NCBI GenBank assembly: GCA_030646955.1
Contig: JAUSKM010000015.1
Location: 285 to 64,284 of the forward strand
Origin: a bacterium
GTDB taxonomy: Bacteria > Patescibacteriota > Patescibacteriia > JACPHY01
Direction: 5' to 3'
Length of the DNA stretch: 64,000 nt
Shown here: positions 20,810 through 54,341 of the stretch, piece by piece
Layout of the letters: each line of letters opens with the position of its first letter
Numbering within the stretch: position 1 is the first letter of the stretch
The notes under the pieces: model-generated
Seen by the model: only the letters and a program-made list of their open reading frames with translations
Databases searched by the model: none
What the model was told of the DNA's origin: nothing
Program-made: the position numbers and the translations under genes

Positions 20810-20866
20810 AGCGACGATATTCGTGCTTCCAGTATACCACTTTGGTATGCATCCCGACGACCCCGC

Positions 20867-24176: not shown

Positions 24177-24704
24177 CTACATCCGCTCCTCCCGTGGCCG
24201 ACGCGCGAGCACCATCGTGAGAATGGGGAGCACGATCCAAAGTGAACGCGCGGTATCCGTGAGGAACGCAGCGCGGGTCACCGGCGCGAACTGCTGCGTG
24301 ATGGTGGCGGGGAGGAACGAGAGCGTCACGGACACGAGCAATCCAACGTGGAGGATACTGAATACGAACACCTGCCAGAACGGCCCATCGTACCCGCCAA
24401 TCGCCCACGACATCGCGCTGCGGGAGAGCAGGAAAAAAATGAAGAGCAGCACGCCGAGGAATACCGTCACACGGAACACGAACGATGGCCCCACCGCTAC
24501 CTGCACCATTGTTCCGCTCACCTCATGGAACCACGGCACGGTGTGTACAACCGCGAGCGCCATGTAAATGGCCACGATGATCGCCAAAATCCGGTCACGT
24601 CCCAACGAGACGCCGTAGAGCAAAGAAAAAACGACAAAGAACAGGATGATGAAGAGATCCCACGTTGGCGAAGCAAAATTGAACTGAGGAAGCCAAGAAG
24701 ACAT
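24177..24704 (-). CDS. Hypothetical membrane protein (about 5 TM helices)
   Basis: 175-aa strongly hydrophobic ORF. Confidence 0.5.
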   Translation of the reverse strand: MSSWLPQFNFASPTWDLFIILFFVVFSLLYGVSLGRDRILAIIVAIYMALAVVHTVPWFHEVSGTMVQVAVGPSFVFRVTVFLGVLLFIFFLLSRSAMSWAIGGYDGPFWQVFVFSILHVGLLVSVTLSFLPATITQQFAPVTRAAFLTDTARSLWIVLPILTMVLARRPREERM

Positions 24705-24802
24705 ACTACTGCGCAGTCATCCACAGTATAGCACGCTGGGCAGAGTACGCACCGTAGAAATAATTTCTGAACGGGATAGAGGACGTTGTGGGTACCCTTG
24801 AT

Positions 24803-29943: not shown

Positions 29944-31782
29944 TTACATCATCGACATGTCCAGGATGATCTGCACGGCATCGACGAGGCTCTTGCACGG
30001 CTTCATGTTCGGCTTCTGACGTAGGCTCCTGGTGGAGAGCACGTAGGCCGGAACCGGACCGTAGCCCTCGATCAGAACGGTCGGCTTCCCGGCCTCCAGC
30101 GCGAGAAGCACTTCGCGGAGCGTGCCTTCCTCACCGCCGAGGGTCAGAACGACGTTGCTGTCGGCGATCATCTGCTGACGCATGTCGTCCTTCTCACCCA
30201 CAAACATGACGGGCACCCCGCCGAACGAGTCTTCCGCCCTGCCCTGCATGTAGCTGGGCTGGTAGAGACGCACTTCCGGCTGGGCAACCTTGTCGCTCGC
30301 GAGAGCCGCCCTGAGGACCGCACCCGGATTTCCGCCCGGCGTTCCGGCGAAGAACGAGCAGTGGGAACTGAGGTTGTCGGCCACGAACTGCGCCGCGCCC
30401 TGCGGAAGATCGGGCTGCTTCCCGGATCCGACCACGAGCACGTTGTGACGCGCGTGATTTGCTCCGTTCGGCACGGTCGCCGGCAACGGTTCCTCGGGCA
30501 GGGCGATGAAGTCGGCGACGAGCTTCTTCCACCGCTTGCTGGACGTGATTTTCTTGAGCTTGCGCTCTATCTTCTCGCGCTTGCGCCGCTCGGTGTCCTC
30601 GGCCTTGGCCTGCTTCTGCTGCTCCTTGAACTCGGCCACTTCCTTCTCGTGTTCGGCCCTTCCCTCGGCGACCTGCTGAACGTGTTCCGCGCGCCGATTC
30701 TTCTGACGCTCAGCCCACTTCTTGTGCTGCTCTTCGATCTGGTTGTCGATGTCGGCGGCCACGTAGATGTAGCCATCGGGGACTGCAAGCAGACACCTGC
30801 GGATCGTCTCGGACGCTTTCGTGGGACGCTCCACGACCTTGGCGTAGGTACCGGGGGCGTAGTCGATGCCCATCAGTTCGGGTTTGTCCTCGAAGGTGTT
30901 GTCCGGATCGACGCCCCAGTTGACGTTGCGGTGGTGGTCGAGATCCTGGCCGTACTCGTTCGAGCCGACGATGCTCCAGCTCGAGTGACCGATCCGGTTG
31001 CGCCACGCGTCTGCATCGAAGTATTTGACCAGCACCCGGATCTGACGACCGGAATCGACCGTCGAATCCACGAAGAGGACGTGCTTGCCCCGGAGCGTTC
31101 CCTTCTTGGCGAACTCCTCGAGCTTGTCCTCGTCGAGCTGACCACCGCCCTGATCCACCTTGATGCTGAACATCTCGGTGAGACCGAGAGCGCGCCGCAG
31201 GATGATGCAGGGAAGACGACCACCGCGGTCGATGGACACGAGCACGGTCTGCTCGATGCTCACCTTATGGGAACGACGCAGATGTTTGACGACCGTCTGA
31301 TGCAGGCCGTAGTACGGAATCGCACGGGCGATGCGCTCCATCTCGCCGACCGACTCGAGCATAGCGATTGCCCGCTCGTACTCGGCGCGGCTGATGCGCT
31401 TCTTGATCTTGTCGATCCCATCGTCGGCGTCCATGATGTTGCGGTCGCGCAGGAGGGGGATCTTGAAATAGCCCTTCTTCTTGTCGTCGTCCTCGTCGAT
31501 GCCGCGCGTGTAGGCGAAGCGAAAGACCTCGTTAGCATCGTCCACGAGGCGCATGCGCTCGACGTGGCTCAAGGACTCGAAATCCTCGATCCTACTCTGC
31601 TCGAGCTTGAGGCGCGGAGTGAAGTCCTCCTTCTCGAACGTCGGCTCGACGTAGGGCGGGAGCCCGATGATCCCGTTCCGATACGCCTGCAGGAGGCTCC
31701 ACTGGATCTCCGGCATGGCCACGACGAGACGCTGAGCGAGAGACTGACGACATCCGAGAGACATGTGCATGCCGAATGACAT
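29944..31782 (-). CDS. Multidomain protein: unknown N-terminal domain + type I phosphoribosyltransferase (PRTase) domain + K/E-rich coiled coil + C-terminal LOG/SLOG-like Rossmann domain
   Basis: PRTase hood and PRPP loop: TVLVSIDRGGRLPCIILRRAL...GKHVLFVDSTVDSGRQI. Coiled coil EQHKKWAERQKNRRAEH...KAEDTERRKREKIERKLKK. LOG-like NVLVVGSGKQ...AGTPGGNPGAV...VVLTLGGEEGTLREVLLALEAGKPTVLIEG (GGxGTxxE-like). Confidence 0.6.
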   Translation of the reverse strand: MSFGMHMSLGCRQSLAQRLVVAMPEIQWSLLQAYRNGIIGLPPYVEPTFEKEDFTPRLKLEQSRIEDFESLSHVERMRLVDDANEVFRFAYTRGIDEDDDKKKGYFKIPLLRDRNIMDADDGIDKIKKRISRAEYERAIAMLESVGEMERIARAIPYYGLHQTVVKHLRRSHKVSIEQTVLVSIDRGGRLPCIILRRALGLTEMFSIKVDQGGGQLDEDKLEEFAKKGTLRGKHVLFVDSTVDSGRQIRVLVKYFDADAWRNRIGHSSWSIVGSNEYGQDLDHHRNVNWGVDPDNTFEDKPELMGIDYAPGTYAKVVERPTKASETIRRCLLAVPDGYIYVAADIDNQIEEQHKKWAERQKNRRAEHVQQVAEGRAEHEKEVAEFKEQQKQAKAEDTERRKREKIERKLKKITSSKRWKKLVADFIALPEEPLPATVPNGANHARHNVLVVGSGKQPDLPQGAAQFVADNLSSHCSFFAGTPGGNPGAVLRAALASDKVAQPEVRLYQPSYMQGRAEDSFGGVPVMFVGEKDDMRQQMIADSNVVLTLGGEEGTLREVLLALEAGKPTVLIEGYGPVPAYVLSTRSLRQKPNMKPCKSLVDAVQIILDMSMM

Positions 31783-33346: not shown

Positions 33347-33386
33347 TGAAAACCGCCCTCCGATTTCGGAGGGCGGTTTTCATTAT
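33347..33386. terminator. Bidirectional rho-independent terminator (serves tRNA-Glu on + and murF on -)
   Basis: aaaaccgccctccga-tttc-ggagggcggtttt, a perfect 13-bp GC stem flanked by A- and T-tracts. Confidence 0.8.
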
Positions 33387-34708
33387 GCGGTCCACGCGCG
33401 GTCCTGGCGGCAGAGGAGTGCTGGTGCGCGGAGGGGATCGGCCATGAGCTCACGGACGATGCGCTCGAGACGGACGCCTTGGGAACCCTTGATGAGTACC
33501 ACGTCGCCGGGTGCCAGAAGATCCTGCACAAAGCGGCCCGCCTCCTGGGCGCGGGAAAATTCTAGGATGCGATCCGCGGGCATGCCCGCTGCGCGCGCGG
33601 CAGCGGCGGTCTGGCGGCTGGCGGCGCCCACACAGATCAGGTACGCAAGCGACTGCGCCGCGGCCAACCGCCCGATCCGCTCGTGCTCCTGAATCGTGAG
33701 CGTCCCCAGTTCCAACATGTCCCCAAGCACCGCGATGGCACGGCCCGGCACCGTACGCTGCTCCAGCGCGTGCAGGGCAACGGCAACCGCGAGCGGCGAT
33801 GCATTGTAGCTGTCATCCAAAAGCGCCGTCTCCTTGATGCCGGGGATGATACGCATGCGACCCGGCGCCGGTTGGTACTGCCGCAGCGCGTGCGAAATCT
33901 CCACGAGGTGCATGCCCAGTCCCAAACCCACCGCCGCCGCGGCAAGCGCCGCGTGCATGTGCCCTGCCCCCAGACACCCCGGGAGATGCACCGGCACCGT
34001 TGCGCCCCCTGCAACAATTTTGAACGTCATCCCGCCCGGAAGCACAAATCCTCCTGTCGTTCCTTGTTCCTTGTCCCTTACCCCTTGTGCTCCAGAGGTA
34101 ACTCGGTACTCGATCCCGCGTACGTCCGCATCCTCGTGCGTGCCGTACGAAATGACGCGCGCCTTCGTGCGCTCCGTCATCGCCCACACATGGATATCAT
34201 CACGGTTGAGTACTGCGATGTCATCGCGGCTGAGCACGCTGACGAGCTTGCGTTTCTCGCTCGCCACGCGGTCCACGGACTTAAAGAATTCCGTGTGCGC
34301 TGCGCCAACCGCCGTGACGACAGCAACGTGCGGACGCGCAATGCGTAGGAGGTAGCTCAAATCGCCTGGATGGTCCGCGCCATACTCCAGCACGAGCGCC
34401 TCCGGGTACCGCAACCCACGCACGGCTGCGTACCACTTCCCCCGCGCAAGCAACGCAACCCAGCGCCACGGCGACCGGCCGGGCGCCCGCCCTCCGATGA
34501 TCGCCACCGGCAACCCAATCTCGTTGTTGTAGTTCTTCGGCGCAGCGCGAACGTCCCAATCGGCGTCCAACACCGCACGGATTGCCTCACGCGCCGACGT
34601 TTTCCCCACACTGCCCGTGATACCCACGATCAGCGGTTGCTGCCGCCGCACCACTGCACGGGCGAGGAAGGCGAGGAGTGATTCCAAGAATGTACGCATA
34701 GCGATCAA
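33383..34708 (-). CDS. murF: UDP-N-acetylmuramoyl-tripeptide--D-alanyl-D-alanine ligase
   Basis: 441-aa Mur ligase: P-loop GITGSVGKTS, DDSYNASP, C-terminal domain. Confidence 0.85.
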   Translation of the reverse strand: MIAMRTFLESLLAFLARAVVRRQQPLIVGITGSVGKTSAREAIRAVLDADWDVRAAPKNYNNEIGLPVAIIGGRAPGRSPWRWVALLARGKWYAAVRGLRYPEALVLEYGADHPGDLSYLLRIARPHVAVVTAVGAAHTEFFKSVDRVASEKRKLVSVLSRDDIAVLNRDDIHVWAMTERTKARVISYGTHEDADVRGIEYRVTSGAQGVRDKEQGTTGGFVLPGGMTFKIVAGGATVPVHLPGCLGAGHMHAALAAAAVGLGLGMHLVEISHALRQYQPAPGRMRIIPGIKETALLDDSYNASPLAVAVALHALEQRTVPGRAIAVLGDMLELGTLTIQEHERIGRLAAAQSLAYLICVGAASRQTAAAARAAGMPADRILEFSRAQEAGRFVQDLLAPGDVVLIKGSQGVRLERIVRELMADPLRAPALLCRQDRAWTA

Positions 34709-34714
34709 CGCACG

Positions 34715-36481
34715 TTACTCCACCCGCGGCGGAACGCCGTCATACTGGACGATATACGCTGCGAGGTCGCCGAACAAGGGGGCGGCAGTGGAATCCGCAA
34801 AGAGCCGCTGTGCACGGTCAATGCGAACAACCATGGAAAAGGTTGGCCGATCCACCGGTCCGATTCCTACGAACGTATGGATCGTGTCATCTGAATAGCC
34901 CGGTCGATCACGGTACGGAATCTGCGCCGTGCCGGTTTTCCCGCCAATGAGGTACCCGCGCACCCCCGCGCTCTTGGCGTACCCGTCTCGCACCACGCTC
35001 ACCAGCATGCCCTGGAGTATCACCGCTGCGCGTTGACTCACCGCGCGATGCACAATGCGCGGCGCAAAGGTTTTGCGTGTGCCATCCGGCGCCACAACCG
35101 CCTCCACGATGCGCGGCTCCATGAGGTTCCCGCCGTTTGCGATTGCTGCGTACGCTACGGCAAGCTGAAGCTGCGTGGCGGTAATGCCCTGCCCAAACGA
35201 CGCGGTGGCGAGATAGATGTCGCCGCGCTGCACGAGGTTCGCAATGTTCCCGGGCGACTCCGCATCGAGCGCGATCCCCGTCCGCGCACCAAACCCAAAC
35301 CGCTCGATGGCCTCGCGGAACCGATCACGCCCCAGCTGCATCGCCGCGTACACGGTTCCCGTATTAATCGAAAATCGAAGCACGTCCGTCATCGTCGAAC
35401 GCCCGTAGACCTTATGGAGCGAGTTTGTGATGGTGTGATTATTCAACGTGACGCTGCCGGTGTCCGTAAACTCTGTATTTGGCCCTACCGCATCCGCTTC
35501 GATTGCCGCAGCCATGGTGACGGCCTTGAACACCGAGCCGGGCTCGTATGCGTCCGATACGGCTGGGGTCTGGTACACGCCGATATCCTCCACATCGCCA
35601 TACCGATTGGGATCGAACGCCGGCACGGCGCACATTGCACGCACGGCACCGGTCACGGGATGGAGGATGACAATAGATCCGCTGGCCGCGCCGTGTTTTG
35701 TAACCGCATCCTCCAGCCGGCGGCACACTTCCAGTTGGAGCTCCCGTTCAATAGTAAGGTACACGTCCGACCCATGTTCCGCCTGGCGGCCATCGCGTTT
35801 CCCAAACACGATGAGGCGACCGGCGGCATCGCGCTCCCCCTCCAGGAATCCCGAGGTGCCGGCGAGCACGTCTTCGAACGCGCCCTCGACGCCGTACCGT
35901 CCCGCGATGCGCGAATCCTCGTCTGCGCCAACGAAACCCGTAAGGTGCGCCATGCGCGTCCCATCGGGATAGAAGCGCGCGATCGTGGGCTGCGTATGGA
36001 TGCCGGGCAGCGCGAGCGCGAGCACCGAATCGCGCAGCTCCGCAGATGCATCGCGCGTGACGGGCTCGTAGGGGTCATTGGGTTTGCTCAGACGCTCCGC
36101 AAGCGCAACCTCTGCCGCCTCGTCCAACTGCAGCAGTGGCGCCAGGAGCCCTGCGGCGCGCTTGGGCTGTGCGATCTCCGTCGGCACCGCGTAGACGGTG
36201 TACGTTCGCTGATTCGTCGCCACCGGGAAGTACCCGTCACTCGCCTGCCGATCGTGTACAAAAATTTCACCACGCTCCGCCGTGAGCTGCCGGAACACCT
36301 CGTGCTGCCCGGCCGCAAGCCCCGTGTACCACTCGTGGTCGCGCACCTGCACAATCCAGAGCCGCACGACCACCACCGCCCACAGCAACACGAACACGCC
36401 CGCGACCACCACGAGGCGCGGATCCCGGCCGCCGCGCGGACGCGCCGCAGCCCGCCCCGCCCCCCATCCATTCCGCATCAT
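34715..36481 (-). CDS. ftsI: Penicillin-binding protein 2/3 transpeptidase (FtsI-type)
   Basis: N-terminal TM segment and dimerisation domain. SxxK (GSVFK), SxN and KTGT(A) motifs. Start chosen at MMRNGW (the track ORF extends to 36577) to avoid overlap with the upstream gene. Confidence 0.8.
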   Translation of the reverse strand: MMRNGWGAGRAAARPRGGRDPRLVVVAGVFVLLWAVVVVRLWIVQVRDHEWYTGLAAGQHEVFRQLTAERGEIFVHDRQASDGYFPVATNQRTYTVYAVPTEIAQPKRAAGLLAPLLQLDEAAEVALAERLSKPNDPYEPVTRDASAELRDSVLALALPGIHTQPTIARFYPDGTRMAHLTGFVGADEDSRIAGRYGVEGAFEDVLAGTSGFLEGERDAAGRLIVFGKRDGRQAEHGSDVYLTIERELQLEVCRRLEDAVTKHGAASGSIVILHPVTGAVRAMCAVPAFDPNRYGDVEDIGVYQTPAVSDAYEPGSVFKAVTMAAAIEADAVGPNTEFTDTGSVTLNNHTITNSLHKVYGRSTMTDVLRFSINTGTVYAAMQLGRDRFREAIERFGFGARTGIALDAESPGNIANLVQRGDIYLATASFGQGITATQLQLAVAYAAIANGGNLMEPRIVEAVVAPDGTRKTFAPRIVHRAVSQRAAVILQGMLVSVVRDGYAKSAGVRGYLIGGKTGTAQIPYRDRPGYSDDTIHTFVGIGPVDRPTFSMVVRIDRAQRLFADSTAAPLFGDLAAYIVQYDGVPPRVE

Positions 36482-36503
36482 GCGCGCGGCTGCCATAGGT
36501 TCT

Positions 36504-37664
36504 TCACAATCTCCCCTCTCCCACCGGGCTGTAGCCATTGCGAACCTCCTCGCCATCGGTGTAGCCGTCGCCGTCACTGTCCCGGCTGTTCAGGTCACTG
36601 CCGTACAACGCCTCGCGAACGTCGGAAAGACCGTCGGCATCGGCATCGGAACCTGCGGGCAATGCGTGCGACGGCTGCGGTTGCACGCCGAAGAGCTGCT
36701 CGATGACATCGTCGAGCGGGAGCGCGCTCGGAGGCGGCGCCATGGTCACGGGAACGTTCCAATCTGACCACTGGATGTCTGCGGTGCCGGTGAGGCGGAT
36801 GTTCGTTGCGTCCTCGCGCACCGCGAACGGGAACTGCGCGCGCACGAACGCACCCGCGCCCGTGAGCCACACATCGATCGTAATGTCCCGCACCCGCGGA
36901 ACGACTGCGGTCTGGAGCAATGCGGCCAGCGTCTCCCCACTCTCGCTTCCTGCGAGGAGCGCGATGAGCGCAGCGAGCGCTTGCTCGTTGATCGTCGTGC
37001 GGAGGTGCCGCGCGCGGACGCCGTCTACGCGCTCGCGCCCGAGATCCTCCTGGAACATGAGCAGTGGGTGCGTCCGCGCTTGTTCACGCAGCGCCGCGGC
37101 GCGACTCGCGTCGTACGGTGCGCTGGGTGCTGCCGCGCCTCCTATGCGCTGCTGGAGCCGCGCAAAGGTTGCACTATCCGCCACTACCCACCGCTCGCCG
37201 AGCATGCCCTGGACGATGCCCGCGCCGAGCGCCACGGCAGGCGCCGATGTCCCGCCGAGGAACGAAAAATCCCGCAGTCGGAGGTACTGCATCTCGCCAA
37301 TCGCTCGCGTGTCGAGCAGGAAGCCCAGCGTCGCATCACCGATCGCGCCCGCTGCCGTGATCGTCCCATCGCTTGCACGCGCGCCATCGTGCTCGCCGCG
37401 CCGTCCGTCATACGTCAGATGGAGCGACGCGGATTGCTCGTCCTGCTCCCACGCGATGCGCACGTCCGCGCGTGTGCGCACGGACACCGCCTCGACGGCC
37501 TGCACCCACGCACGATCGAGCGCCACCTGCGGATGCCGCGCCACCGCGCTCCACGGCCCCGCGCCCATCACCGCCGCGACCGTGCCAGCGGCTGCCGCGA
37601 CAATAATCGCAACAACTGCGGGCACGATGCCTCTTGGTTCCGTACCGTGTCGAAGCATAGTCAT
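36504..37664 (-). CDS. Membrane-anchored hypothetical protein with C-terminal Ca-binding thrombospondin type-3-like D-x-D-x-DG repeats
   Basis: N-terminal TM segment IVPAVVAIIVAAAAGTVAAV. C-terminus DADADGLSDVREALYGSDLNSRDSDGDGYTDGEEV. Confidence 0.5.
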   Translation of the reverse strand: MTMLRHGTEPRGIVPAVVAIIVAAAAGTVAAVMGAGPWSAVARHPQVALDRAWVQAVEAVSVRTRADVRIAWEQDEQSASLHLTYDGRRGEHDGARASDGTITAAGAIGDATLGFLLDTRAIGEMQYLRLRDFSFLGGTSAPAVALGAGIVQGMLGERWVVADSATFARLQQRIGGAAAPSAPYDASRAAALREQARTHPLLMFQEDLGRERVDGVRARHLRTTINEQALAALIALLAGSESGETLAALLQTAVVPRVRDITIDVWLTGAGAFVRAQFPFAVREDATNIRLTGTADIQWSDWNVPVTMAPPPSALPLDDVIEQLFGVQPQPSHALPAGSDADADGLSDVREALYGSDLNSRDSDGDGYTDGEEVRNGYSPVGEGRL

Positions 37665-37990
37665 GATGTCAATGCATTCGCTTCAATCGTGCACCATTCG
37701 CCCTGCTCCGCATCCCATCGAAATGCGCGAAGGAACGACACGAGATCATTGGTATCGTACATTTTTTGCACTGCCGTTTCTCCACCGATGCGCCGCGATC
37801 CCAACGCATGCTCACCGATGGTGCGCGGCTTGGTGACGTATTCCAACCGCACTCGTCCCATCGGCGCCTCAAATTCTACGAACGCCACCGTGCTCAATGG
37901 CACGCCCTCCAGTTCGGTTCTGCCTTCCTCTGCAATCACGAACCGCTCGGCAATGCGATCCAGGAGATCCGCCCATTGGGATGGTTGCAT
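37661..37990 (-). CDS. Hypothetical small protein
   Basis: MQPSQWADLLDRIAERFVIAEEGRTELEGV..., about 109 aa. Translationally coupled (4-bp overlap) to the downstream gene. Confidence 0.4.
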   Translation of the reverse strand: MQPSQWADLLDRIAERFVIAEEGRTELEGVPLSTVAFVEFEAPMGRVRLEYVTKPRTIGEHALGSRRIGGETAVQKMYDTNDLVSFLRAFRWDAEQGEWCTIEANALTS

Positions 37991-38009
37991 ACAAAAACAA
38001 TGCGATGCC

Positions 38010-41000
38010 TTACGGTTCCTCGCGTGATACTGCCGCTGCCGGCGCCTCGGCAATACCGGGTGATACCGTCATATCCTGCGGAGCCGTCGTCCCCGCATCG
38101 CGGAGTGCCCCGGTGTGCACACTCGGGTGCAGCGCGAGATCCACGCCAACAATGCCCTCGCGTTTGCGCATGTCCAGCGTACTCGAGCGCGCCGGGTCAT
38201 ACCCCCCCTTCTGCGCCGTCACATAGTAGACGCTCTTGCCCGCAAGGAACTGGTAACGGCCGTATCGGTCGGTCGCCGCGGTCTCCAGAAGTTTTCCAAA
38301 CTCAATATCGAACAGACGGACAACCGCGAGGTGGAGCGGGTGCTTAGAAACCACATCCCGAATCGCACCCCAGGATTTCACGGCGCGCGCGCGGATAGCA
38401 AGTCGCCGGAAGAGCACGTAGAAGAGGAGGTTGATGCCCAGCACGGCACCGATGAGCGGACGCGGCGAAATGGCGAAGGATGCGATGGAGAGCACGAGGC
38501 CGACATCCGAAACCGCGCCACTGATGATGCGCCCGTAGTGGTTGCGCAGGACATGCTTGTCGAGCGTCATCGTCCGCTCCGCTTTCGCGTCCAGCGGGAT
38601 ACTCTTGATGACGAACCCGCCACCCTCCGGCACCGCGAACGGCTCGCCGTAGGTGCAATCGAGGAAGTCGCCATCCTCGCGGCGCCCCGCAAGGCGCGTG
38701 GAGGGGTATGCGTACTGCGGATGGCGCACGTCCAATCGGTACGATCCTGCTTGCTTCACCGCAAAGTTGTACCGCCCCAGGTGGTCCGTCACCTCGGTGG
38801 CAACCACGCGACCCGTCGCAACATCCAGAAGCCGGACGGTAGCGAGATCCACCGGCCGCTTCGAGAGCGCGCCATACACCGTCCCCCACGCGGTACGCTT
38901 GCGTCGCGAAAAGAGGCGGCTTGGCGAGAGAAGGAAGCCAACGAGGTACTGCGCGTACGCGAGGAGCTGAAACCCGTGCACGGCGGTCGCGGTGTTCGTC
39001 GCGACGGCAACCACCACCGCTGGCGCAACGACACGCTCCGTCGTTGTCTCAACGGCAGGGTTGTCCAGCACGCGTTCCTGCACCGCCACGGCGGTCTTCT
39101 CCGCGGCCTTCGCCGTTGCCTTCGCGGTGGTCTGCGTTGCACTGACGACGGCCTTCGCGGTCGCGGTGGTTGCCTCGGCAACCACCGTCGCGGTACGCGC
39201 CGCGATGCCTTCCGTTTCCTCGGTGCGATCAAACGCGCTCGCGCAGTCAGGATCCGCTGGGTAGTCCAGGAGCGCGTCGCCATCGTTATCCATACCATCT
39301 GCGCATGCGGCTGGCGCGATCGCAAACGGGAGCACCTGCGGGAGCGGCGAGACGTTCCCTGCGGAATCGCGCGCGGCGACGCGGATGGTGGAGCCGCCTG
39401 GTGGGAGTGCGAGCGTTGTACGGAACTCCCATGCGACACTCGTCACGCGGTGCGTAAAGGTTGCCGATTCTCCGCCGATGGTAATGAGGATCGCATCAAC
39501 ATCTCCTGCCGATGCCGCAGGGATGATACCGGCGAGCTGAATCAGCACGTCGAACGCGTCCGCGCGCGATGCCGCAATCCCCTGCTTCGTTGTCCGAACC
39601 TCGCGAACCTCCGGCGTTCCTGGCGGCGTGCGATCCACCACAAACGGAGCAGCCGCCGTCAGCGTCAGCCCTCCAGCGACAACCGCATCGCCGCGCACCT
39701 CATGTGCTCCTTCTGCCACGATGCCGGGGAGGAGTGCCGTGAAACCGCCGAGCGCGTCCGTCTCCACGGAAGCAATGGGGGTACCGTCGAGCGCAATACG
39801 TACCATGGTCTCCGATGGTCCGCGCCCACTCACCACAACGGTTTGCGCATTGGTTGCAGAGCCCGCGATGGGTGCCGTGAGCGTGAGATCGCGCAAGGGC
39901 GGCGATACCATACGCACCTGCGCAGCAGTAGATTGCCCGCTCGTTGTCACACTGATGCGATGCGATCCCTCGCTCACATTGCGAATGGTCAACGAGAAGC
40001 TCTGATCCGCAGCCGCAGTGAGATTCCAATGCGTCCGATCGTCAAGCGAGACCGTCACCGATGCATCGGATGATGCCGCACCACGAATGACGAGATCACC
40101 CGCAGGCAACACCGCGCCATCAACAGGCGCGAGGAGCGCGAACATCGTCGCCGCGTTTGCGCGCGTGACGCCGGGCGCGGGGGACGCCGTGCCCGGCGCT
40201 GCTGACGTGCCCGGCGCAGCAACGTCTGGAATCGGGACCACCGGCGGTGCTCCCGGTTGCTGCGGAGGCGGCGTTGGCTGCGGCGTAACAGTAAGCGGTG
40301 CGCCAACGGGCTCCGCCGGAGGCGCCTCCTGCGGCGGCACTGGTTGTTGCGGCGGCGCTGTGTCCGGCGGAGGAGCAAGCGGCCCAATGACGCTGAACGT
40401 GAGCGGCGCGAGTGCAACCGTACGCGGCGCCACATCCGCAAGGGGCACATATGCCATAGTCGGCGCAACCGTGAGGGATGCGCCCGCAGCTGCCGTTGTC
40501 CGGAAATCAATGCCGAACACCGCCGTTGCACCGATGCCGAGCGTGGCAAGTCGGAATGTCGCAACACCCGGCGCAGTGGCGCCAACATCCGCAGCATCCG
40601 CGTCGCCTGCATCCGATGCACGGACGCCGTTGACTACGAGCGTGCCCGGCATTGGCACGGCACCTGCCGGGATAGGGATAGAAACAACAAGATTGCGCAC
40701 GATGCCGGTCCCCGCATGCGCAACACGCACCACGACGGGAATGCGATCATCCGTACGAACATCCGGAGATGCGAGCGTGGTCTGCACCTGCGCGGACGCA
40801 TCGCCGCGATCGCTGCCGACGGTGGTACTCACAATGGTCGTCGCGGAGCACGCTGATGGCACGCCAACGTGATTGCGCGCCTCGGCACAAAACGCGTAGG
40901 TATGATCCGGCTCAAGGCCAATGACAAGCACGCGGCCGCGCTCCCACTCTGCGAACGTCCGCCATACGGCATCAGGCGTACCAAAAAGCCCGTCTGCAGC

Positions 41001-42851
41001 AACGTACCGGCCAGATTGTTTATCCTTGATCGCATACCGAATGTCGTCCGCGTTCCCGCTGCCAGCACCAAACGCAATGACCGCGCTCGATCGCGTCACA
41101 TCTGATGCGGTCGCTGCTCCCGGCACGACGGCAAGCGTCACCGCACAGGGATACGAATCGGAAACTGGCGAGATCTTCGTGCCGCTCAACGCGACAACGC
41201 GCCGGCCGCAGTACTCGGTGTCCGGCGCGAGCGCACGTTCCTCCACGAATGTTGCCGCGGGATCGTCCGTCCGCGCCAGCTCCTTCCCATCCGCGTCACG
41301 AATCGCAAACCCCGATGCCGCACCCCCGCTATTCGCAAATGGCCATCGGATGCTCGTGGCGGCGGGCACCGGCGTTGCAATCGTTGGCGCCCCGATGGTG
41401 TCATCTACCGTGTACGCAATACGCAACGCGGTGAGGCGCGGATCCGCCTCGCCGTTCGTTGAAATGAGCGTTGCGCGCCACCGCAGCGATGAACCCGTTA
41501 CCGTGAACGTCCATACCGTCCCGGGCGTGACCGGACCCTCCCACCGTGCGGCACCATCCGCTGCGCTCACCTCGTAGGTGATTGCCGCGCCTGCCGGCAC
41601 GGTCGCCGTGGGCGTGAGCGTCGCGGTAAGGATGCGATGCGGAGTGTCATCAACGGGGTTCGCGGTCAACGCGATACCAGGGGATGCGAGGCCGGACATC
41701 AGGACGTTCGCGCCGTCCGCCCGTCCCGCAATGACGCTCCCGTGCGCGGGGTATGTTGGCGCAATGCCAAACGCGGACGGCGCACTGCCAACCCATCCGA
41801 GGGCAAGCGCGGTGGCAGTCCCGCCCTCCACGCGGGCAACGCCGCCACTCCTCCCAACCAGGAGCTGCCCGCCGGGGCCGTATGCAATCGCGCTGGCGTC
41901 CTCGCTGCGATACGCGATACTCCACCCAGCGCCGCCGTCCGTTGTCTCGTACACGCCATCAAGGAACAGTGCGGCAACGCGCCCCGTACTGCTCGCGGCA
42001 AGCGCGGTCGCATACGGCACGGAGATGCCAGCCGGATTGCGCAGCGTCCACGTGGTACCAGCGTCCACGGAACGGTACAGGCCATCGCGCAATGTCGAAA
42101 GGAAGACCGTATGGTTCGTCTGGTACGCAGGATCCACCGCAACGGCGCGGATGTCACCGTTCACGCGCACTGCATCAGACACGCCGGAGGAAATATCGAA
42201 CCATGATACGCCGCTATCTTGGCTTCGCAGCACGCGATCGAACGCCGCGACAAATACCGTGCGGTCTGTCGCGTACGCCGGCGAGAATGCGATACCAAAT
42301 CCATTCACGCTCCCGTCTACCTGCAGCCACGTCACACCGCCATCAATCGTACGCCAAAGGCCGCTCCCGTTTGTCATGGCAAACGCGATCCCATCGCCGG
42401 AGAATGTTGGGGAAACCGCAACCGCAACCGCCTCGCTGCCCGTCGCAAGCATGCGCAGCCACGTTGATCCTCCGTCCGTGGTGCGATACACGCCGTCGCT
42501 TGCAGCGATGAATGCCGTACGACTTGCGGCGTACTCTGGCGTATACGCGACACCGCTGACGCGGCGGCCATCAAACGCGGCGGCGGTCACCCAGACATTC
42601 CCGTTGTCAACCGCGCGACGCAGACGTACGTCCCCTGCTGCACTGTCCCAAGACGCACTCCAACCCGAAGCGAGCGCAGCGGGCACCGAGGAAAATTCCT
42701 CGACGTACACGCGCTCTGTTGCCGCATCAATTTTGGTGACGACGGCACCCGCAAGAACGAGAAGGAGCGCGGCGACTCCAAAGCCAAGCGCATGGTGACG
42801 CGGGAACAATGCAGCCATAGGAACAACAAACAGCCGAGCACGCAGCTCCAT
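38010..42851 (-). CDS. Giant cell-surface protein (>1600 aa): signal/TM anchor, BNR/Asp-box beta-propeller, Ig/FN3-like domains, Pro-rich linker, DNDGD Cys/Asp motif, C-terminal TM helices with two CarboxypepD_reg-like domains
   Basis: Asp-box repeats TTDGGSTW, TIDGGVTW, SQDSGVSW, SVDAGTTW, TTDGGAGW. Linker PPPDTAPPQQPVPPQEAPPAEP. CADGMDNDGDALLDYPADPDC. RVVATEVTDHLGRYNF and LLETAATDRYGRYQFLAGKSVYYV (CarboxypepD_reg-like). The track ORF extends to 43010; start set at MELRARLFVV. Confidence 0.65.
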   Translation of the reverse strand: MELRARLFVVPMAALFPRHHALGFGVAALLLVLAGAVVTKIDAATERVYVEEFSSVPAALASGWSASWDSAAGDVRLRRAVDNGNVWVTAAAFDGRRVSGVAYTPEYAASRTAFIAASDGVYRTTDGGSTWLRMLATGSEAVAVAVSPTFSGDGIAFAMTNGSGLWRTIDGGVTWLQVDGSVNGFGIAFSPAYATDRTVFVAAFDRVLRSQDSGVSWFDISSGVSDAVRVNGDIRAVAVDPAYQTNHTVFLSTLRDGLYRSVDAGTTWTLRNPAGISVPYATALAASSTGRVAALFLDGVYETTDGGAGWSIAYRSEDASAIAYGPGGQLLVGRSGGVARVEGGTATALALGWVGSAPSAFGIAPTYPAHGSVIAGRADGANVLMSGLASPGIALTANPVDDTPHRILTATLTPTATVPAGAAITYEVSAADGAARWEGPVTPGTVWTFTVTGSSLRWRATLISTNGEADPRLTALRIAYTVDDTIGAPTIATPVPAATSIRWPFANSGGAASGFAIRDADGKELARTDDPAATFVEERALAPDTEYCGRRVVALSGTKISPVSDSYPCAVTLAVVPGAATASDVTRSSAVIAFGAGSGNADDIRYAIKDKQSGRYVAADGLFGTPDAVWRTFAEWERGRVLVIGLEPDHTYAFCAEARNHVGVPSACSATTIVSTTVGSDRGDASAQVQTTLASPDVRTDDRIPVVVRVAHAGTGIVRNLVVSIPIPAGAVPMPGTLVVNGVRASDAGDADAADVGATAPGVATFRLATLGIGATAVFGIDFRTTAAAGASLTVAPTMAYVPLADVAPRTVALAPLTFSVIGPLAPPPDTAPPQQPVPPQEAPPAEPVGAPLTVTPQPTPPPQQPGAPPVVPIPDVAAPGTSAAPGTASPAPGVTRANAATMFALLAPVDGAVLPAGDLVIRGAASSDASVTVSLDDRTHWNLTAAADQSFSLTIRNVSEGSHRISVTTSGQSTAAQVRMVSPPLRDLTLTAPIAGSATNAQTVVVSGRGPSETMVRIALDGTPIASVETDALGGFTALLPGIVAEGAHEVRGDAVVAGGLTLTAAAPFVVDRTPPGTPEVREVRTTKQGIAASRADAFDVLIQLAGIIPAASAGDVDAILITIGGESATFTHRVTSVAWEFRTTLALPPGGSTIRVAARDSAGNVSPLPQVLPFAIAPAACADGMDNDGDALLDYPADPDCASAFDRTEETEGIAARTATVVAEATTATAKAVVSATQTTAKATAKAAEKTAVAVQERVLDNPAVETTTERVVAPAVVVAVATNTATAVHGFQLLAYAQYLVGFLLSPSRLFSRRKRTAWGTVYGALSKRPVDLATVRLLDVATGRVVATEVTDHLGRYNFAVKQAGSYRLDVRHPQYAYPSTRLAGRREDGDFLDCTYGEPFAVPEGGGFVIKSIPLDAKAERTMTLDKHVLRNHYGRIISGAVSDVGLVLSIASFAISPRPLIGAVLGINLLFYVLFRRLAIRARAVKSWGAIRDVVSKHPLHLAVVRLFDIEFGKLLETAATDRYGRYQFLAGKSVYYVTAQKGGYDPARSSTLDMRKREGIVGVDLALHPSVHTGALRDAGTTAPQDMTVSPGIAEAPAAAVSREEP

Positions 42852-43002
42852 TGCCGATGCGTGCGCGAACGGCTCACGGAACAATCTTTTGTTAGTATAC
42901 CACGCAAATTTCTCTTGCGCCCACAGGGTACTGGGCGGTACAATGGCAATGTGCATGCGTGACACTGCACGGGGCACGCTCCCGCGCACCACGACTCCAT
43001 CC

Positions 43003-43758
43003 ATGTTCAATCATCAGGATTTTTTCACACTCGAGCGCCGTGCAAAGCAGCAACGCGTTGCCGCGATTGCAGGCAGCGCGCTCGCCGCGATCCTGCTCGT
43101 GACCTTCGCAACCGCGACCGACGCGTCCCGGGCTGTGGATAGCGCATCGCTCGCGCTGGTGTCCGCGGATTGCGCGCCGGTCGTACGCGGCCGCACCATC
43201 CACGTCGCCTGGGAGACCACCGTCGCAGCGGATGAAAATTCCGTCATGGTTGGATCGGACGACATGTTCGGCACCACCGTCGCCGCAACGCCGGGGACGC
43301 GCCACGCAGCAGTCATCGCAGACCTCCCCAGCGGCGCGACCGTCCACTATCGCGTCACATCGCGACGTACTGCCACGGAGGAGACCGCCGCATCCGGTAC
43401 CTGCGTGGTCACGGTGGATGGCCTCGACACCGCCGCGCCACGCTTCACCGATGTCATTGTGGACAGTGTTGTCACCGATGCGGCCGCGGTCCACTTCGCA
43501 ACCAACGAACCCGCCGCGCTCCTCGTTACCGTGACATCCTTTGATGCAGACGGCGCCATCGTCACCGCATCGGAGACCACCGCCACCCAGGATATCGTGT
43601 CGCCTCCCGCCCACCGCATCGTCCTCTCCGGCCTCACCCCCGGCACGCGCTACACCGTCCGCGCAGACGCCATCGACAACGCTGGCAACTCCACCACCTT
43701 GACACCCCCCATCGAATTCCGTACGCTGCATGTGCCCGCCCCCGTAGCTCAGTGGTAG
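43003..43758 (+). CDS. Membrane-anchored protein with two FN3-like (purple acid phosphatase N-terminal-like) domains
   Basis: MFNHQDFFTLERRAKQQRVAAIAGSALAAILLVTFA TM helix. IHVAWETTVAADENSVMVGSD...TVHYRVTS beta-sandwich repeats. The 3' end, including the stop, overlaps tRNA-Lys by 21 nt. Confidence 0.45.
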   Translation: MFNHQDFFTLERRAKQQRVAAIAGSALAAILLVTFATATDASRAVDSASLALVSADCAPVVRGRTIHVAWETTVAADENSVMVGSDDMFGTTVAATPGTRHAAVIADLPSGATVHYRVTSRRTATEETAASGTCVVTVDGLDTAAPRFTDVIVDSVVTDAAAVHFATNEPAALLVTVTSFDADGAIVTASETTATQDIVSPPAHRIVLSGLTPGTRYTVRADAIDNAGNSTTLTPPIEFRTLHVPAPVAQW

Positions 43759-43809
43759 AGCAGCGGCCTTTTAAGCCGAATGTCGCAGGTCCGATCCCTG
43801 CCGGGGGCA
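43738..43809 (+). tRNA. tRNA-Lys (anticodon UUU)
   Basis: GCCCCCGTAGCTCAGTGGTAGAGCAGCGGCCTTTTAAGCCGAATGTCGCAGGTCCGATCCCTGCCGGGGGCA, with anticodon loop CTTTTAA. Confidence 0.85.
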
Positions 43810-43835
43810 TAGATACAACCACGCGCAGCACAACA

Positions 43836-43878
43836 AAACACCCACCCCAGCAATGGGGTGGGTGTTTTGTTGGTTTTT
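43836..43878. terminator. Bidirectional rho-independent terminator (tRNA-Lys on +, murG on -)
   Basis: aaaacacccacccca-gcaa-tggggtgggtgttttgttggttttt. Confidence 0.8.
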
Positions 43879-51724: not shown

Positions 51725-52972
51725 TTATGGTGCGCGCTCCACCATCGTCGCCAGCTCTGCCATCGCGCGCGCATGCTGCGGATCGCGCTCGGCCTTGCTG
51801 TCATCTTCGGTGAGCGCAACTGCCATATCGGGCGTGATGCCATTCCCCTCAATAGATCGGCCTGCGGGCGTGAGCCATTCGGCAATCGTCAATTTGAGCG
51901 CGGATCCATCGCGCAGATTCGCGAGGTGTTGCACGGTCCCTTTCCCAAATGTCTGCGCTCCGATGACGCGCGCACGCCCGGTGTCTTGCAACGCGCCCGC
52001 GACGATCTCTGATGCAGATGCACTCCCCTCGTTGACGAGCACCACCGTCGGAAGGTGCTGGAGCCGCGCGAGCCCACTGGACCGATGCTCCTGCACGCGG
52101 CCATCATTCGTACGCTCCTGGACGATAACATCGCGCTCGATCCACTCCCCCGCAATCGCGATGGCTGCTTCCAAGAAGCCCCCGGGGTTATTCCGCAAAT
52201 CGAGCACGACCGCACGATCGCCCCGCGCGAGAAGCGTACGCACCGCAGCATCAAATCGTTCCACCGTGTCGCCGTTGAAATGTGAGATGTGCACCACCGC
52301 AACCGCCTTGCCGGTACTGGTCCGCTGCTGCTCCACGGTCACACTCTCGATTGCAATGACATCGCGCACGATGGAGACCTCACGCGGCGTCGCTTCTTTC
52401 CCGGACTGCACGAGGAGCTTTACCGCGGTACCGCGCTCACCACGAATACGCGCAACCGCTTCCTCCAACGAGAGATCCAGCGTCGGTTCTTCATCCACCG
52501 CGAGGATGCTATCCCCAGACCGCAGCCCCGCGCGCGCGGCGGGCGTACCGGGGAGCGGCGCGATGACCGTAAGCACGTCGCCACGAATGCCGATCTCCGC
52601 CCCGATACCCTGAAGCGATCCGGAGAGATCCTCACGAAACAACTCCGCGCGCTCCGGATCGAAGAACGCGGAATAGGGATCTTCGAGCGCATCCACCATG
52701 CCCGCAATGGATCCGTAGAAGCGGTCGCGCGTATCCACGGGCTGCCGGAGGAAATCGCGCTCGAGGAGCGACCACACCTCCCAGTACAAACCAAAATCAA
52801 GGTCACGAGCTGCCTCGGGCGCCCCCACATCGCGGTTGACAACACGCGCTGGCGCTCCTCCACCGGCAGATGGATCCGCGTATCGGCCAGCGAAATACCC
52901 AACCCAATAGCTCGCCGCGAGCACGGCAATGCCGACGAGCATCTGGAGGTGTCTGCGGGTAATCGTCACCAT
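51725..52972 (-). CDS. Carboxyl-terminal processing protease (S41 family), PDZ-containing
   Basis: N-terminal TM segment. PDZ domain (GIGAEIGIRGDVLTVIAPLPGTPAARAGLRSGD). S41 catalytic region VVLVNEGSASASEIVAGALQDTGRARVIGAQTFGKGTVQ. Confidence 0.85.
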   Translation of the reverse strand: MVTITRRHLQMLVGIAVLAASYWVGYFAGRYADPSAGGGAPARVVNRDVGAPEAARDLDFGLYWEVWSLLERDFLRQPVDTRDRFYGSIAGMVDALEDPYSAFFDPERAELFREDLSGSLQGIGAEIGIRGDVLTVIAPLPGTPAARAGLRSGDSILAVDEEPTLDLSLEEAVARIRGERGTAVKLLVQSGKEATPREVSIVRDVIAIESVTVEQQRTSTGKAVAVVHISHFNGDTVERFDAAVRTLLARGDRAVVLDLRNNPGGFLEAAIAIAGEWIERDVIVQERTNDGRVQEHRSSGLARLQHLPTVVLVNEGSASASEIVAGALQDTGRARVIGAQTFGKGTVQHLANLRDGSALKLTIAEWLTPAGRSIEGNGITPDMAVALTEDDSKAERDPQHARAMAELATMVERAP

Positions 52973-53060
52973 AGTACTCCCCATGCGTACGTTACTCCTC
53001 CACGCTACCACATTCCGCAACGGTGTGAACGTCTGGGTATCTCCGACCCCACAACGCTGC

Positions 53061-54332: not shown

Positions 54333-54341
54333 ATCGATTCT

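Follow-up and report, generated by a model that had tools for sequence, protein, structure and literature searches.

The canonical dcw cluster has the order mraZ-rsmH-ftsL-ftsI-murE-murF-mraY-murD-ftsW-murG-murC-ddl-ftsQAZ. In staphylococci and streptococci, surface proteins with a YSIRK signal are secreted at the septum, and CPR bacteria, which are uncultured and tiny, are thought to be host-attached. A reconstruction of the history of the dcw cluster, with CPR genomes outside its scope, describes genes as lost or delocalised and 'likely no gene gain' (PMC8871954). LprG/LppX-type proteins transport glycolipids in mycobacteria, and among the LolA-superfamily members of monoderms, GerS acts not as a lipoprotein carrier but as an activator of CwlD, a peptidoglycan amidase (bioRxiv 10.1101/2025.01.13.632879). 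No literature on an arrangement such as the one described here was found for CPR, Uhrbacteria or Patescibacteria.

In the window, the whole 64-kb stretch of DNA that was analysed, ftsI, murF, mraY, ftsW and murG all lie on the minus strand between positions 33383 and 48074 (Table 1). As in the canonical cluster, these five genes are co-directional and tightly packed, and ftsI-murF and mraY-ftsW-murG each stay together; the order of the two sub-clusters is, however, swapped, and between them lie a putative terminator hairpin, a tRNA and a gene on the opposite strand. The resulting order is mraY-ftsW-(DNA alkylation repair gene)-murG, followed by the hairpin, tRNA-Lys and the FN3 gene, and then by the gene for a giant surface protein (the giant), s109, s386, ftsI and murF. 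The genes mraY and ftsW were assigned from their translations and from their correspondence with Pfam-annotated genes (Glycos_transf_4/MraY_sig1 and FTSW_RODA_SPOVE) in L004, the locus of an Uhrbacteria genome. Among the larger window ORFs scanned with Pfam, neither murC, murD, murE, ddl or ftsQAZ nor, upstream of ftsI, mraZ, rsmH or an ftsL-like gene was found, in agreement with the initial annotation, which had described murE, murD, murC and ftsQAZ as absent and the locus as unusual. The same annotation had interposed tRNA-Lys and the FN3 gene before murG; the position is right, and both lie on the plus strand, opposite to their neighbours, a point it had omitted.

Table 1. Features of the locus, in window coordinates
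Feature	Coordinates	Strand	Basis or remark
murF-type Mur ligase	33383..34708	-	Pfam Mur_ligase_M + Mur_ligase_C
ftsI (class B penicillin-binding protein)	34715..36496	-	Pfam Transpeptidase E 1.7e-63, PBP_dimer E 4e-15
s386, 386-aa membrane-anchored protein	36504..37664	-	TM, predicted LprG/LppX-fold domain, TSP3 tail
s109, 109-aa acidic protein	37661..37990	-	ATG 37990
Giant surface protein, 1,613 aa	38010..42851	-	ATG 42851, stop 38010
Giant: Cmod, aa 1255-1580 (last ~330 residues)	38112..39089	-	Alignments A3, A4
Giant: Cys-bounded acidic motif C-x-D-G-x-D-N-D-x-D-x(3)-D-x-P-x-D-P-D-C	39243..39305	-	Alignment A3
Giant: three Ig-like domains (Big_7/Big_6, Glucodextran_B/Bap-like, Big_13)	39312..40145	-	Segment-wise Pfam
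Giant: variable domain (aa 690-822), then proline-rich spacer (aa 823-900)	40152..40784	-	Alignment A3, composition
Giant: two FN3-like beta-sandwich domains, aa ~485-680	40812..41399	-	Profile matches, Cys pairs
Giant: BNR/Asp-box beta-propeller, aa ~70-400	41652..42644	-	Five Asp boxes, Pfam, profile
Giant: N-terminal hydrophobic segment, aa 21-39	42735..42791	-	Kyte-Doolittle mean 2.41
Extended -10 element TGGTATACT	42894..42902	-	~40 nt upstream of giant start codon; cross-locus conservation
FN3 / purple-acid-phosphatase-N-type membrane-anchored protein, 251 aa	43003..43758	+	Pfam
tRNA-Lys	43738..43809	+	Between giant and murG
Hairpin, 19-bp GC-rich stem, T-runs on both strands	43831..43872	.	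Terminator scan; between tRNA-Lys and murG end

The giant, s109, s386, ftsI and murF follow one another on the minus strand with spacings of 19, -4, 7 and 6 nt, so that the tight, co-directional packing first reported for these genes holds. The overlap is formed by the s386 start and the s109 stop (ATGA), and the 7-nt gap assumes that ftsI starts, as is most likely, at ATG 36496. The giant ORF is open from 43010 and its NCBI-annotated start is 42956; ATG 42851 is judged the best start, being downstream of the conserved promoter and fitting the N-termini of the homologs. The GC content of the giant region (0.65-0.66) slightly exceeds that of its neighbours (0.62-0.64), which fits the Ala/Pro/Gly-rich composition of the protein; a foreign origin of the region is unsupported.

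The gaps between these genes leave no space for a terminator or promoter, and a terminator scan detected no terminator-like site in any gap from the giant to murF. Upstream of the giant, the TATACT core of the extended -10 element is invariant in all six aligned homologous intergenic regions, five of which also carry the TG prefix, the surrounding spacer being otherwise unconserved. A sigma-70 consensus scan gave no match upstream of the giant, and the element emerged only from the alignment of the homologous spacers. The window contains four copies of the extended -10 motif (0.19 expected), with zero from the giant start through the murF end, and the pattern TGNTATAMT has a single match per locus in L002, L004, L005 and L006, namely the element upstream of the giant. 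L008 has the 109-aa and ~420-aa genes by themselves, and there TGCTATATT lies ~30 nt upstream of the small gene. Rfam reported three tRNAs and no known leader or riboswitch over the window. With the FN3 gene and tRNA-Lys read from the plus strand and the strong hairpin probably ending the mraY-ftsW-murG unit, the giant would open its own transcription unit. Co-transcription of giant-s109-s386 with ftsI-murF from one promoter is likely. Internal promoters within the 4.8-kb giant gene are nevertheless possible, as illustrated by TGCTATACT within the Cmod coding region of L007.

The order giant, 109-aa gene, ~390-aa gene, ftsI(-murF) was found in the window and in L002, L005, L006, L007 and L009, and in L004 it occurs without the 109-aa gene. 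Comparison of the dcw arrangement in relatives thus shows the order of the giant, small genes, ftsI and murF kept in all seven loci, window included, that are long enough to show it, with the FN3 gene divergent. In these loci, FtsI and MurF share 57-74% and 50-74% identity, respectively, with the window proteins. The s109 protein is conserved to a similar degree as FtsI (53-64%), whereas faster evolution, typical of exposed proteins, is seen in s386 (28-41%) and in the FN3 protein (31-49%). The module is confined to one small clade of uncultured Uhrbacteria-like (CPR/Patescibacteria) bacteria, and in the relatives the whole 25-kb region is syntenic, hrcA-grpE-dnaK and CTP synthase-L27 included.

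The reading that we favour, with a probability of about one half, is that a lineage-specific three-gene envelope module heads the ftsI-murF sub-operon, shares its conserved extended -10 promoter and is made together with the septal wall. Since FtsI and MurF are products of the same unit, synthesis of the surface apparatus would coincide in time and place with that of new septal wall, and the giant, as a wall-spanning protein, could then be threaded into nascent peptidoglycan. The initial annotation had likewise suggested coordinated expression with septal peptidoglycan synthesis; the gaps, the lack of terminators, the conserved -10 element and the recurrent order support this indirectly, and the adjacency may still reflect descent only. 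Functional coupling of the surface proteins to ftsI-murF, or to division, is plausible, if unproven.

The giant would provide a signal or anchor, a BNR propeller head, an FN3 and Ig stalk and, with its proline-rich spacer, sufficient length to span the wall. Over the whole protein, the Pfam matches above curated cut-offs are CarboxypepD_reg (45.2 bits, cut-off 32.3) in two stretches, SdrD_B (34.9, cut-off 29.7), Sortilin-Vps10 (33.9, cut-off 33) and Big_13 (29.9, cut-off 27); segment-wise, Big_7 and Big_6 also exceed their cut-offs, and fn3 and Glucodextran_B fall below them. These searches agree with the earlier description of a ~1.6-kaa protein with an N-terminal anchor, five Asp boxes, beta-sandwiches and a Pro-rich stalk. 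The hydrophobic segment at aa 21-39, a predicted signal peptide or signal anchor, is followed in most of the seven homologs of alignment A3 by a K-[VI]-D-A-A motif. A pilin-like N-terminus was rejected, the giant having no GFxxxE-type motif like that of the clade B Cmod protein.

For the propeller, the pattern [ST]xDxGxxW matched at aa 124, 168, 210, 261 and 303, and the narrow whole-protein margin of Sortilin-Vps10 rose to 40.8 bits on the propeller segment; the NCBIfam F510_1955 glycosylhydrolase model reached 57.7 bits against a cut-off of 175. In a search of PDB sequences with the family profile, GH74 xyloglucanases, Ycf48 and sortilin matched the propeller, titin and fibronectin matched profile positions 479-671, and Bap, a biofilm-associated surface protein, matched the Ig-like region. 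The FN3-like domains, with a Pfam fn3 match below cut-off (E 8.5e-4), contain the invariant pairs C548/C569 and C655/C668. The variable domain and the proline-rich part (35% proline over the 78 residues of the spacer) are the least conserved region of the alignment and are missing in P0005. Almost every position of the Cys-bounded acidic motif is invariant, and the NCBIfam acidic double-disulfide repeat matches it below cut-off (E 4.7e-6).

The giant ends in Cmod, which comprises, in this order, VQExVLDNP, hydrophobic helices, RRKR-x2-WGTVY, CarboxypepD_reg 1, two TM helices, RR...KSWG and CarboxypepD_reg 2. The hydrophobic segments are at aa 1274-1310 and 1442-1483, and CarboxypepD_reg (PF13620) scores 50.6 bits on the segment, above the gathering score and over two stretches (aa 1322-1381 and ~1497-1550), which bears out the earlier proposal of a C-terminal TM region with two CarboxypepD_reg-like domains. 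Each of the seven homologs has 5-6 Lys or Arg among the 15 residues that follow helix Hb; the corresponding counts are 3-5 ahead of TMc and 2-5 behind TMd, and the stretch before Ha is net negative. The ectodomain has a pI of 4.8 and the CarboxypepD_reg-containing stretches have pIs of 9.9 and 9.3; all conserved Cys pairs are in the ectodomain. By the positive-inside rule, the pI values and the Cys distribution, both CarboxypepD_reg domains are probably cytoplasmic, although domains of this type are normally extracytoplasmic. Cmod would thus cross the membrane three times and hold two basic CarboxypepD_reg beta-sandwiches in the cytoplasm.

The s109 protein would be a small acidic cytoplasmic protein and a candidate partner of these basic domains. 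It has no hydrophobic or membrane segment and carries an invariant TKPRT-x-G...SRRIG loop; its family comprises seven clusters, and a fold search returned no informative match. In other clades, the small genes that follow Cmod were considered as s109 relatives and rejected (best E 0.13). For s386, a TM segment (aa 13-31) is followed by an LprG/LppX-fold domain (aa ~45-325), modelled as an unclosed beta-barrel with helices as in LprG and LppX, and by a TSP3 calcium-binding tail (aa ~338-386). The Ca-binding repeats that the initial annotation saw in one of the small genes correspond to TSP3_bac (PF18884) in s386, above its cut-off of 25 at 26.5 bits (aa 362-377) and matched in 14 of 23 family members. 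A word-indexed homolog search with s386 returned only itself and TSP3-tail matches, and an exhaustive representative search recovered the family. In a PDB profile search the family reached LprF (E 0.37) and LprG (E 0.85); the PDB entry 3mha is LprG bound to glycolipid. As for its role, s386 may either move lipids or glycolipids through the wall or bind and regulate a wall enzyme.

Cmod occurs at 40 metagenome and 3 genome loci, in proteins of 534-2,136 aa with interchangeable BNR, FN3 or pilin-like heads, and is a reusable membrane module, which current domain libraries describe merely as generic CarboxypepD_reg. The FN3 protein (Pur_ac_phosph_N 38.5 bits, fn3 25.3 bits in Pfam) is encoded divergently from the giant, with homologs equally placed in L002, L004, L005, L006 and L009, and its relatives adjoin or are fused to Cmod proteins in other loci. 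In searches for anti-phage defence and phage families, s109, s386, the FN3 protein and Cmod had zero PADLOC or PHROGs matches at E <= 0.01.

The other occurrences of Cmod weigh against the favoured reading. In 31 other metagenome loci, no ftsI, murF, murG, ftsW or mraY is present in the flanks of up to 8 kb per side, and the Cmod gene most often (~20 loci) belongs to an operon of unnamed surface proteins. In L008, moreover, what comes after the small-gene pair is not ftsI but a gene on the opposite strand, and in L053 the distant s386 relative is flanked by neither Cmod nor ftsI. The usual Cmod contexts speak for a tentative alternative, possible rather than probable, of adjacency but no coupling: the giant, s109, s386 and the FN3 protein would form a host-attachment or surface-decoration system, of the kind typical of episymbiotic CPR bacteria, that landed between dcw fragments in the clade ancestor and, the genome being compact and co-directional, is read through into ftsI-murF. 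The region-wide synteny points to inheritance over specific selection of the giant-ftsI adjacency, and the free swapping of Cmod ectodomains, together with the variable centre of that of the giant, is as expected for adhesins. However, no promoter is recognisable for ftsI and murF alone, which by sequence depend on the one before the giant, and the order was kept though FtsI diverged to 57% identity. In addition, six loci of a second clade have, behind the gene for a pilin-headed Cmod protein, co-directional genes for a PAP2 undecaprenyl-diphosphatase-like protein, mltG and a DUF2207 protein, an independent placement that gives Cmod a second, separate link to wall genes. Even if the coupling were purely positional, the locus would be a tidy case of operon capture in a streamlined genome.

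A more direct role in division, in which s386, the giant or both would replace FtsL/FtsB/FtsQ-type regulators and control FtsW-FtsI, the giant relaying an outside signal via Cmod and s109, is quite improbable. The bitopic s386 does lie directly upstream of ftsI, in the usual place of ftsL, the predicted topology puts large domains on either side of the membrane, and invariant polar residues (N1286, Q1295, Y1299, Q1301, Y1302 and N1474) lie within the hydrophobic helices of Cmod. By analogy, the activation of CwlD by the LolA-fold GerS of Clostridioides difficile (bioRxiv 10.1101/2025.01.13.632879) offers a precedent for the pairing of such a protein with a peptidoglycan enzyme and for an action of s386 on FtsI; the partner here would, however, be a transpeptidase, not an amidase, and the best structural matches of s386 did not include GerS. 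FtsI and FtsW are universal, whereas the module occurs in one small clade, L004 has no s109, and s386 evolves fast. The boldest form, that the giant, s109 and s386 are lineage-specific division machinery with contact-gated septal synthesis and that Cmod was repeatedly recruited to sites beside peptidoglycan genes, is likewise very doubtful. If it held, the BNR head would sense host or wall contact and relay it via the three-pass Cmod to the CarboxypepD_reg domains and s109, an LprG-fold protein in the ftsL position would activate FtsW-FtsI, and surface contact would gate septal wall synthesis of an episymbiont; Cmod would be an undescribed membrane-base family with cytoplasmic transthyretin-like domains, beside ftsI-murF in one clade and PAP2-mltG in another.

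That s386 shuttles a lipid-linked molecule between the membrane and the wall or surface, with the giant as scaffold or receptor and the ftsI-murF link reflecting general envelope growth, would parallel the glycolipid carriers of mycobacteria (bioRxiv 10.1101/2025.01.13.632879) and fit the lipobox-like LGGAGC of the L004 homolog, which resembles that of true lipoproteins, but is highly unlikely, since the window s386 has zero Cys, hence no lipobox, and cannot be lipidated, has no LppX_LprAFG (PF07161) match at gathering score (one of 23 family members matches at E 8.6e-4, and DUF2092 and DUF6612 match two members each, weakly), and the unit has no transporter gene comparable to Rv1410c. The cargo could be a lipid scavenged from a host, a lipoglycan or a wall precursor linked to a lipid.

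On the reading of an envelope module made with the septal wall, the locus is a concrete candidate link between CPR division and the installation of large surface proteins, and it brings to light s109, a new small family conserved as strongly as FtsI, and s386, an LprG-fold protein in a monoderm context. Compared with mycobacterial LppX, LprG and LprF, s386 shares 11-20% identity, has ~80 extra residues of helical insertions, is TM-anchored rather than lipid-anchored and adds the C-terminal TSP3 tail; its gene adjoins ftsI, whereas theirs adjoin an MFS transporter gene. Compared with the BNR propellers of Sortilin-Vps10, Ycf48/HCF136 and GH74, the propeller of the giant is alike in its five Asp boxes at ~45-residue spacing, but its sequence matches span few blades at low scores, and it forms the N-terminal head within a far larger membrane protein. 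With Gram-positive wall-spanning adhesins (SdrD, Bap and the MSCRAMM type), the giant shares the signal or anchor, the head, the Ig/FN3/SdrD-B sandwiches and the Pro-rich spacer, and its family profile matches PDB sequences of SdrD and Bap. Unlike these adhesins, it has no match to the sortase signal LP.[TSA]G anywhere in its sequence and ends in a multi-pass membrane module with two beta-sandwiches predicted to be cytoplasmic. Finally, compared with the canonical dcw cluster, ftsI is preceded by a 4.8-kb surface-protein gene and two lineage-specific genes, not by mraZ, rsmH and ftsL, a clade-specific gain of ~6.3 kb of envelope genes, apparently with the promoter included, that is unusual for a gene cluster of normally rigid make-up.

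The giant surface-protein gene, the 109-aa gene, the 386-aa gene, ftsI and murF follow one another on the minus strand of the window. The 19-bp gap and 4-bp overlap read in the initial annotation are exact: 19 nt separate the TAA of the giant gene from the ATG of the 109-aa gene, which shares a 4-nt ATGA with the 386-aa gene, and gaps of 7 nt and 6 nt precede the start codons of ftsI and murF, respectively. The hairpin after murG looks, from its sequence, like a bidirectional terminator. The DNA_alkylation gene is placed between ftsW and murG and overlaps murG by 4 nt; in two Uhrbacteria loci (L004 and L009), this gene is absent and ftsW and murG directly adjoin. The divergent FN3-type coding sequence, with its stop at 43758, runs 21 nt into the 5' end of the tRNA-Lys gene on the same strand (43738-43758), and its homologs are a few residues shorter at the C-terminus.

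Coordinates of the wall-gene region and of other features in the window
Feature	Position	Strand	Remark
mraY	48074-47025	-	
ftsW	47022-45886	-	
DNA-alkylation-repair gene	45656-44949	-	Pfam DNA_alkylation, E 2.3e-60
murG	44952-43885	-	
Hairpin (terminator scan)	43831-43872		between tRNA-Lys and murG stop; 19-bp stem, GC-rich, T-runs on both strands
tRNA-Lys	43738-43809	+	
FN3-type gene	43003-43758	+	251 aa, membrane-anchored
Extended -10 element TGGTATACT	42894-42902	-	~40 nt 5' of ATG 42851; a copy of TGNTATACT
Giant gene	38010-42851	-	ORF open from 43010; ATG 42851 gives 1,613 aa
109-aa gene	37661-37990	-	start ATG 37990
386-aa gene	36504-37664	-	
ftsI	36496-34715	-	start ATG 36496
murF	34708-33383	-	
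tRNA-Glu		+	beyond murF in minus-strand reading order
TGNTATACT copy	20831-20839	-	
TGNTATACT copy	24725-24733	-	
TGNTATACT copy	54107-54115	+	
175-aa ORF	24177-24704		
916-aa ORF	52929-55679	+	PEGA domain, sole Pfam match
612-aa ORF	29944-31782	-	third-position GC 0.84; Lys/Glu-rich central region; only match SLOG-cluster4, sub-threshold
845-aa type IV secretion coupling protein, VirD4/TraG type	17922-20459	-	TrwB_AAD_bind, T4SS-DNA_transf
Lower-GC segment	8001-14000		GC 0.52-0.57 vs ~0.62

Among 5.8 billion clusters, the giant protein has only five other full-length relatives (42-57% identity), one of which is named Candidatus Uhrbacteria. Their contigs repeat the order of a divergent FN3 gene, the giant gene, a ~109-aa gene, a ~390-aa gene, ftsI, sometimes one extra gene, and murF. 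A scan of GTDB genomes added one Uhrbacteria locus, in which mraY-ftsW-murG and the FN3 gene are followed by giant-111-461-ftsI-murF. The placement that the initial annotation had called unusual for a cluster of division and cell-wall genes (dcw) recurs in relatives: ftsI lies downstream of the ~390-aa gene in all seven loci long enough to contain it, the window included. Variants are a locus without the 109-aa gene (L004) and one in which the two small genes stand on their own, followed by an opposite-strand gene (L008). Identities to the window proteins are 76-78% for DnaK, 57-74% for FtsI, 50-74% for MurF, 53-64% for the 109-aa protein, 31-49% for the FN3 protein and 28-41% for the 386-aa protein. 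The conserved gene order must be read with the caveat that the wider region is also syntenic, with CTP synthase-L27 upstream and HD/F420-ligase and hrcA-grpE-dnaK downstream.

A generic sigma-70 scan found no promoter upstream of the giant gene. The spacers between the FN3 and giant genes of six loci were aligned. The alignment contained a single conserved block, an extended -10 element with an invariant terminal TATACT; five of the six spacers carry TG-N-TATACT, and the sixth (L009) has CG instead of TG. Four copies of the motif TGNTATACT are present in the 64-kb window, as compared with 0.19 expected, and no copy was found from the start of the giant gene to the end of murF. In four related loci (L002, L004, L005 and L006; 11-25 kb each), the TGNTATAMT match upstream of the giant gene is the sole one, and TGCTATATT lies ~30 nt 5' of the stand-alone pair of small genes in L008. 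Because of this conserved -10 element and the hairpin after murG, giant-109-386-ftsI-murF is most likely one transcription unit. Elsewhere in the window, the 175-aa ORF has one copy of TGNTATACT ~20 nt upstream, and another copy is located within the 916-aa ORF; the motif may represent the predominant kind of strong promoter in this genome.

The giant protein is identical to the NCBI MAG protein Q7T01_01425, which is annotated there as 1,648 aa with a start at ATG 42956. That start lies upstream of the conserved -10 element, and the annotated protein is probably too long. ATG 42851, which agrees with the N-termini of the aligned homologs, or ATG 42818 suits the promoter and the homolog N-termini better than ATG 42956, the start that adds the stretch 42852-42956 (-).

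The domain description in the initial annotation was also borne out. Five Asp boxes ([ST]xDxGxxW) lie at residues 124, 168, 210, 261 and 303, and residues 823-900 are 35% proline. On the whole protein, two CarboxypepD_reg stretches, SdrD_B, Sortilin-Vps10 and Big_13 exceeded the curated Pfam cut-offs; a segment-wise scan also brought Big_7 and Big_6 above their thresholds, with fn3 and Glucodextran_B scoring below theirs. Among PDB sequences, the family profile matched GH74 xyloglucanases and Ycf48, as well as FN3 domains of titin/fibronectin and the adhesin Bap. No LPxTG motif is present in the giant sequence. The homologs are most alike in the propeller and over the ~450 residues at the C-terminal end, and they vary in the centre. 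One relative, L006 (1-4096), has another giant gene (2,069 aa; PSII_BNR, Big_5) immediately past its FN3 gene, so BNR-headed giants can be duplicated at this locus.

The conserved C-terminal membrane module (residues 1255-1580) comprises, in order, VQExVLDNP, an Ala/Val/Thr-rich helix (Ha), an amphipathic Q/Y-rich helix (Hb), RRKR-x2-WGTVY, the first CarboxypepD_reg domain, two TM helices (TMc and TMd), RR...KSWG and the second CarboxypepD_reg domain. In all seven homologs, the stretch preceding Ha is net acidic, and 5-6 Lys/Arg residues directly follow Hb, 3-5 precede TMc and 2-5 follow TMd. The ectodomain, which holds all the conserved Cys pairs, has a pI of 4.8, and the two stretches containing the CarboxypepD_reg domains have pIs of 9.9 and 9.3. 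On the basis of the positive-inside rule, both domains are predicted to be cytoplasmic, a placement that is, to our knowledge, unusual for this fold.

The entire module is shared by an 878-aa Falkowbacteria protein, and a metagenome scan for it yielded 40 loci, whose ORFs were scored with purpose-built HMMs and phmmer queries; three contexts emerged. The first is the Uhrbacteria-type FN3/giant-109-386-ftsI-murF arrangement (2 of the 40 loci, in addition to those found earlier). In the second, a separate clade of six loci (L028, L029, L031, L032, L034 and L049; e.g. L031 3406-8566), the module is fused to an N-terminus of the type IV pilin/pseudopilin-like (prepilin) type in a protein of ~535-570 aa, after which come a PAP2 undecaprenyl-diphosphatase-like gene, mltG (TIGR00247, 221.8 bits; cut-off, 103.4 bits) and a DUF2207 gene; one further short contig carries the pilin-headed gene only. 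The third and commonest, with ~20 loci (L011, L016-L024, L027, L030, L033, L035, L036 and L041-L048; e.g. L024 978-8954), has two or three conserved unnamed genes (~227, ~361 and ~334 aa, the last with sub-threshold WxLIP_PGBD or NPCBM_assoc matches), frequently an FN3 protein, encoded on its own or as a fusion, and then the module; this operon often precedes further giant ORFs of 1,400-2,400 aa. No ftsI, murF, murG, ftsW or mraY was found in loci of the second and third contexts, in flanks of up to 8 kb on each side. The module thus resembles an all-purpose membrane base for interchangeable heads; its association with wall-synthesis genes arose in two contexts and is not a general one.

For the 109-aa protein (pI 4.8, no hydrophobic segment), the family comprises only seven clusters, all within this clade, with an invariant basic loop TKPRT-x-G...SRRIG; searches for a fold gave no informative match. 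For the 386-aa protein, an exhaustive search returned ~30 representatives, with faint matches to LppX_LprAFG, DUF2092 and DUF6612; the profile weakly matched LprF and LprG among PDB sequences, in agreement with the Foldseek match to LprG (E 2.8e-8, probability 1.00). The protein therefore joins a TM anchor to a domain of the LprG/LppX fold that bears helical insertions, and ends in a calcium-binding TSP3 tail. It belongs to the LolA superfamily by fold; by Pfam sequence membership the window protein falls outside it, nor is it a lipoprotein, and the L004 homolog has a lipobox-like LGGAGC. Mycobacterial LprG/LppX-type proteins are glycolipid carriers, and LolA-fold proteins of monoderms have other roles, e.g. 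GerS activates the peptidoglycan amidase CwlD (bioRxiv 10.1101/2025.01.13.632879).

Several observations concern the rest of the window. The PEGA domain is related to the CarboxypepD_reg fold, and the 916-aa ORF may encode a further envelope protein of broadly this type. The lower-GC segment, which encodes a 388-aa protein with two 3-dmu-9_3-mt stretches and a Glyoxalase match and a 291-aa protein with a Cu-binding_MopE acidic Cys motif, may have been acquired. With regard to the coupling protein at 17922-20459, type IV secretion systems of Patescibacteria are the subject of one paper (PMC12102498).

These results best fit a scenario in which a clade-specific envelope module, promoter included, was inserted ahead of ftsI-murF and would therefore be produced together with the septal transpeptidase FtsI. 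The giant protein would act as a wall-spanning receptor or adhesin, with the C-terminal module as its anchor. The main rival is a functionless adjacency, inherited within a compact and co-directional genome. The synteny of the wider region favours this reading; the conserved -10 element ahead of the giant gene, and the retention of the order while FtsI has diverged to 57% identity, count against it. More ambitious readings, each of low probability, are that the module regulates the divisome in a lineage-specific manner or that it serves lipid trafficking of the kind that the LprG/LppX fold brings to mind. Coupling of the envelope module to nascent wall synthesis would be mechanistically reasonable; the septum is where large Gram-positive surface proteins are inserted.

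The arrangement was confirmed, is conserved and had gone unremarked; it is confined to a single clade of uncultured organisms, and what it means for function we infer. No description of the giant-109-386-ftsI-murF arrangement was found in the searchable literature, and a reconstruction of dcw evolution that reported 'likely no gene gain' in the cluster did not sample CPR genomes (PMC8871954). Set against that cluster, the locus is a dcw sub-operon with captured lineage-specific envelope genes, made up of known domain types and one small family.
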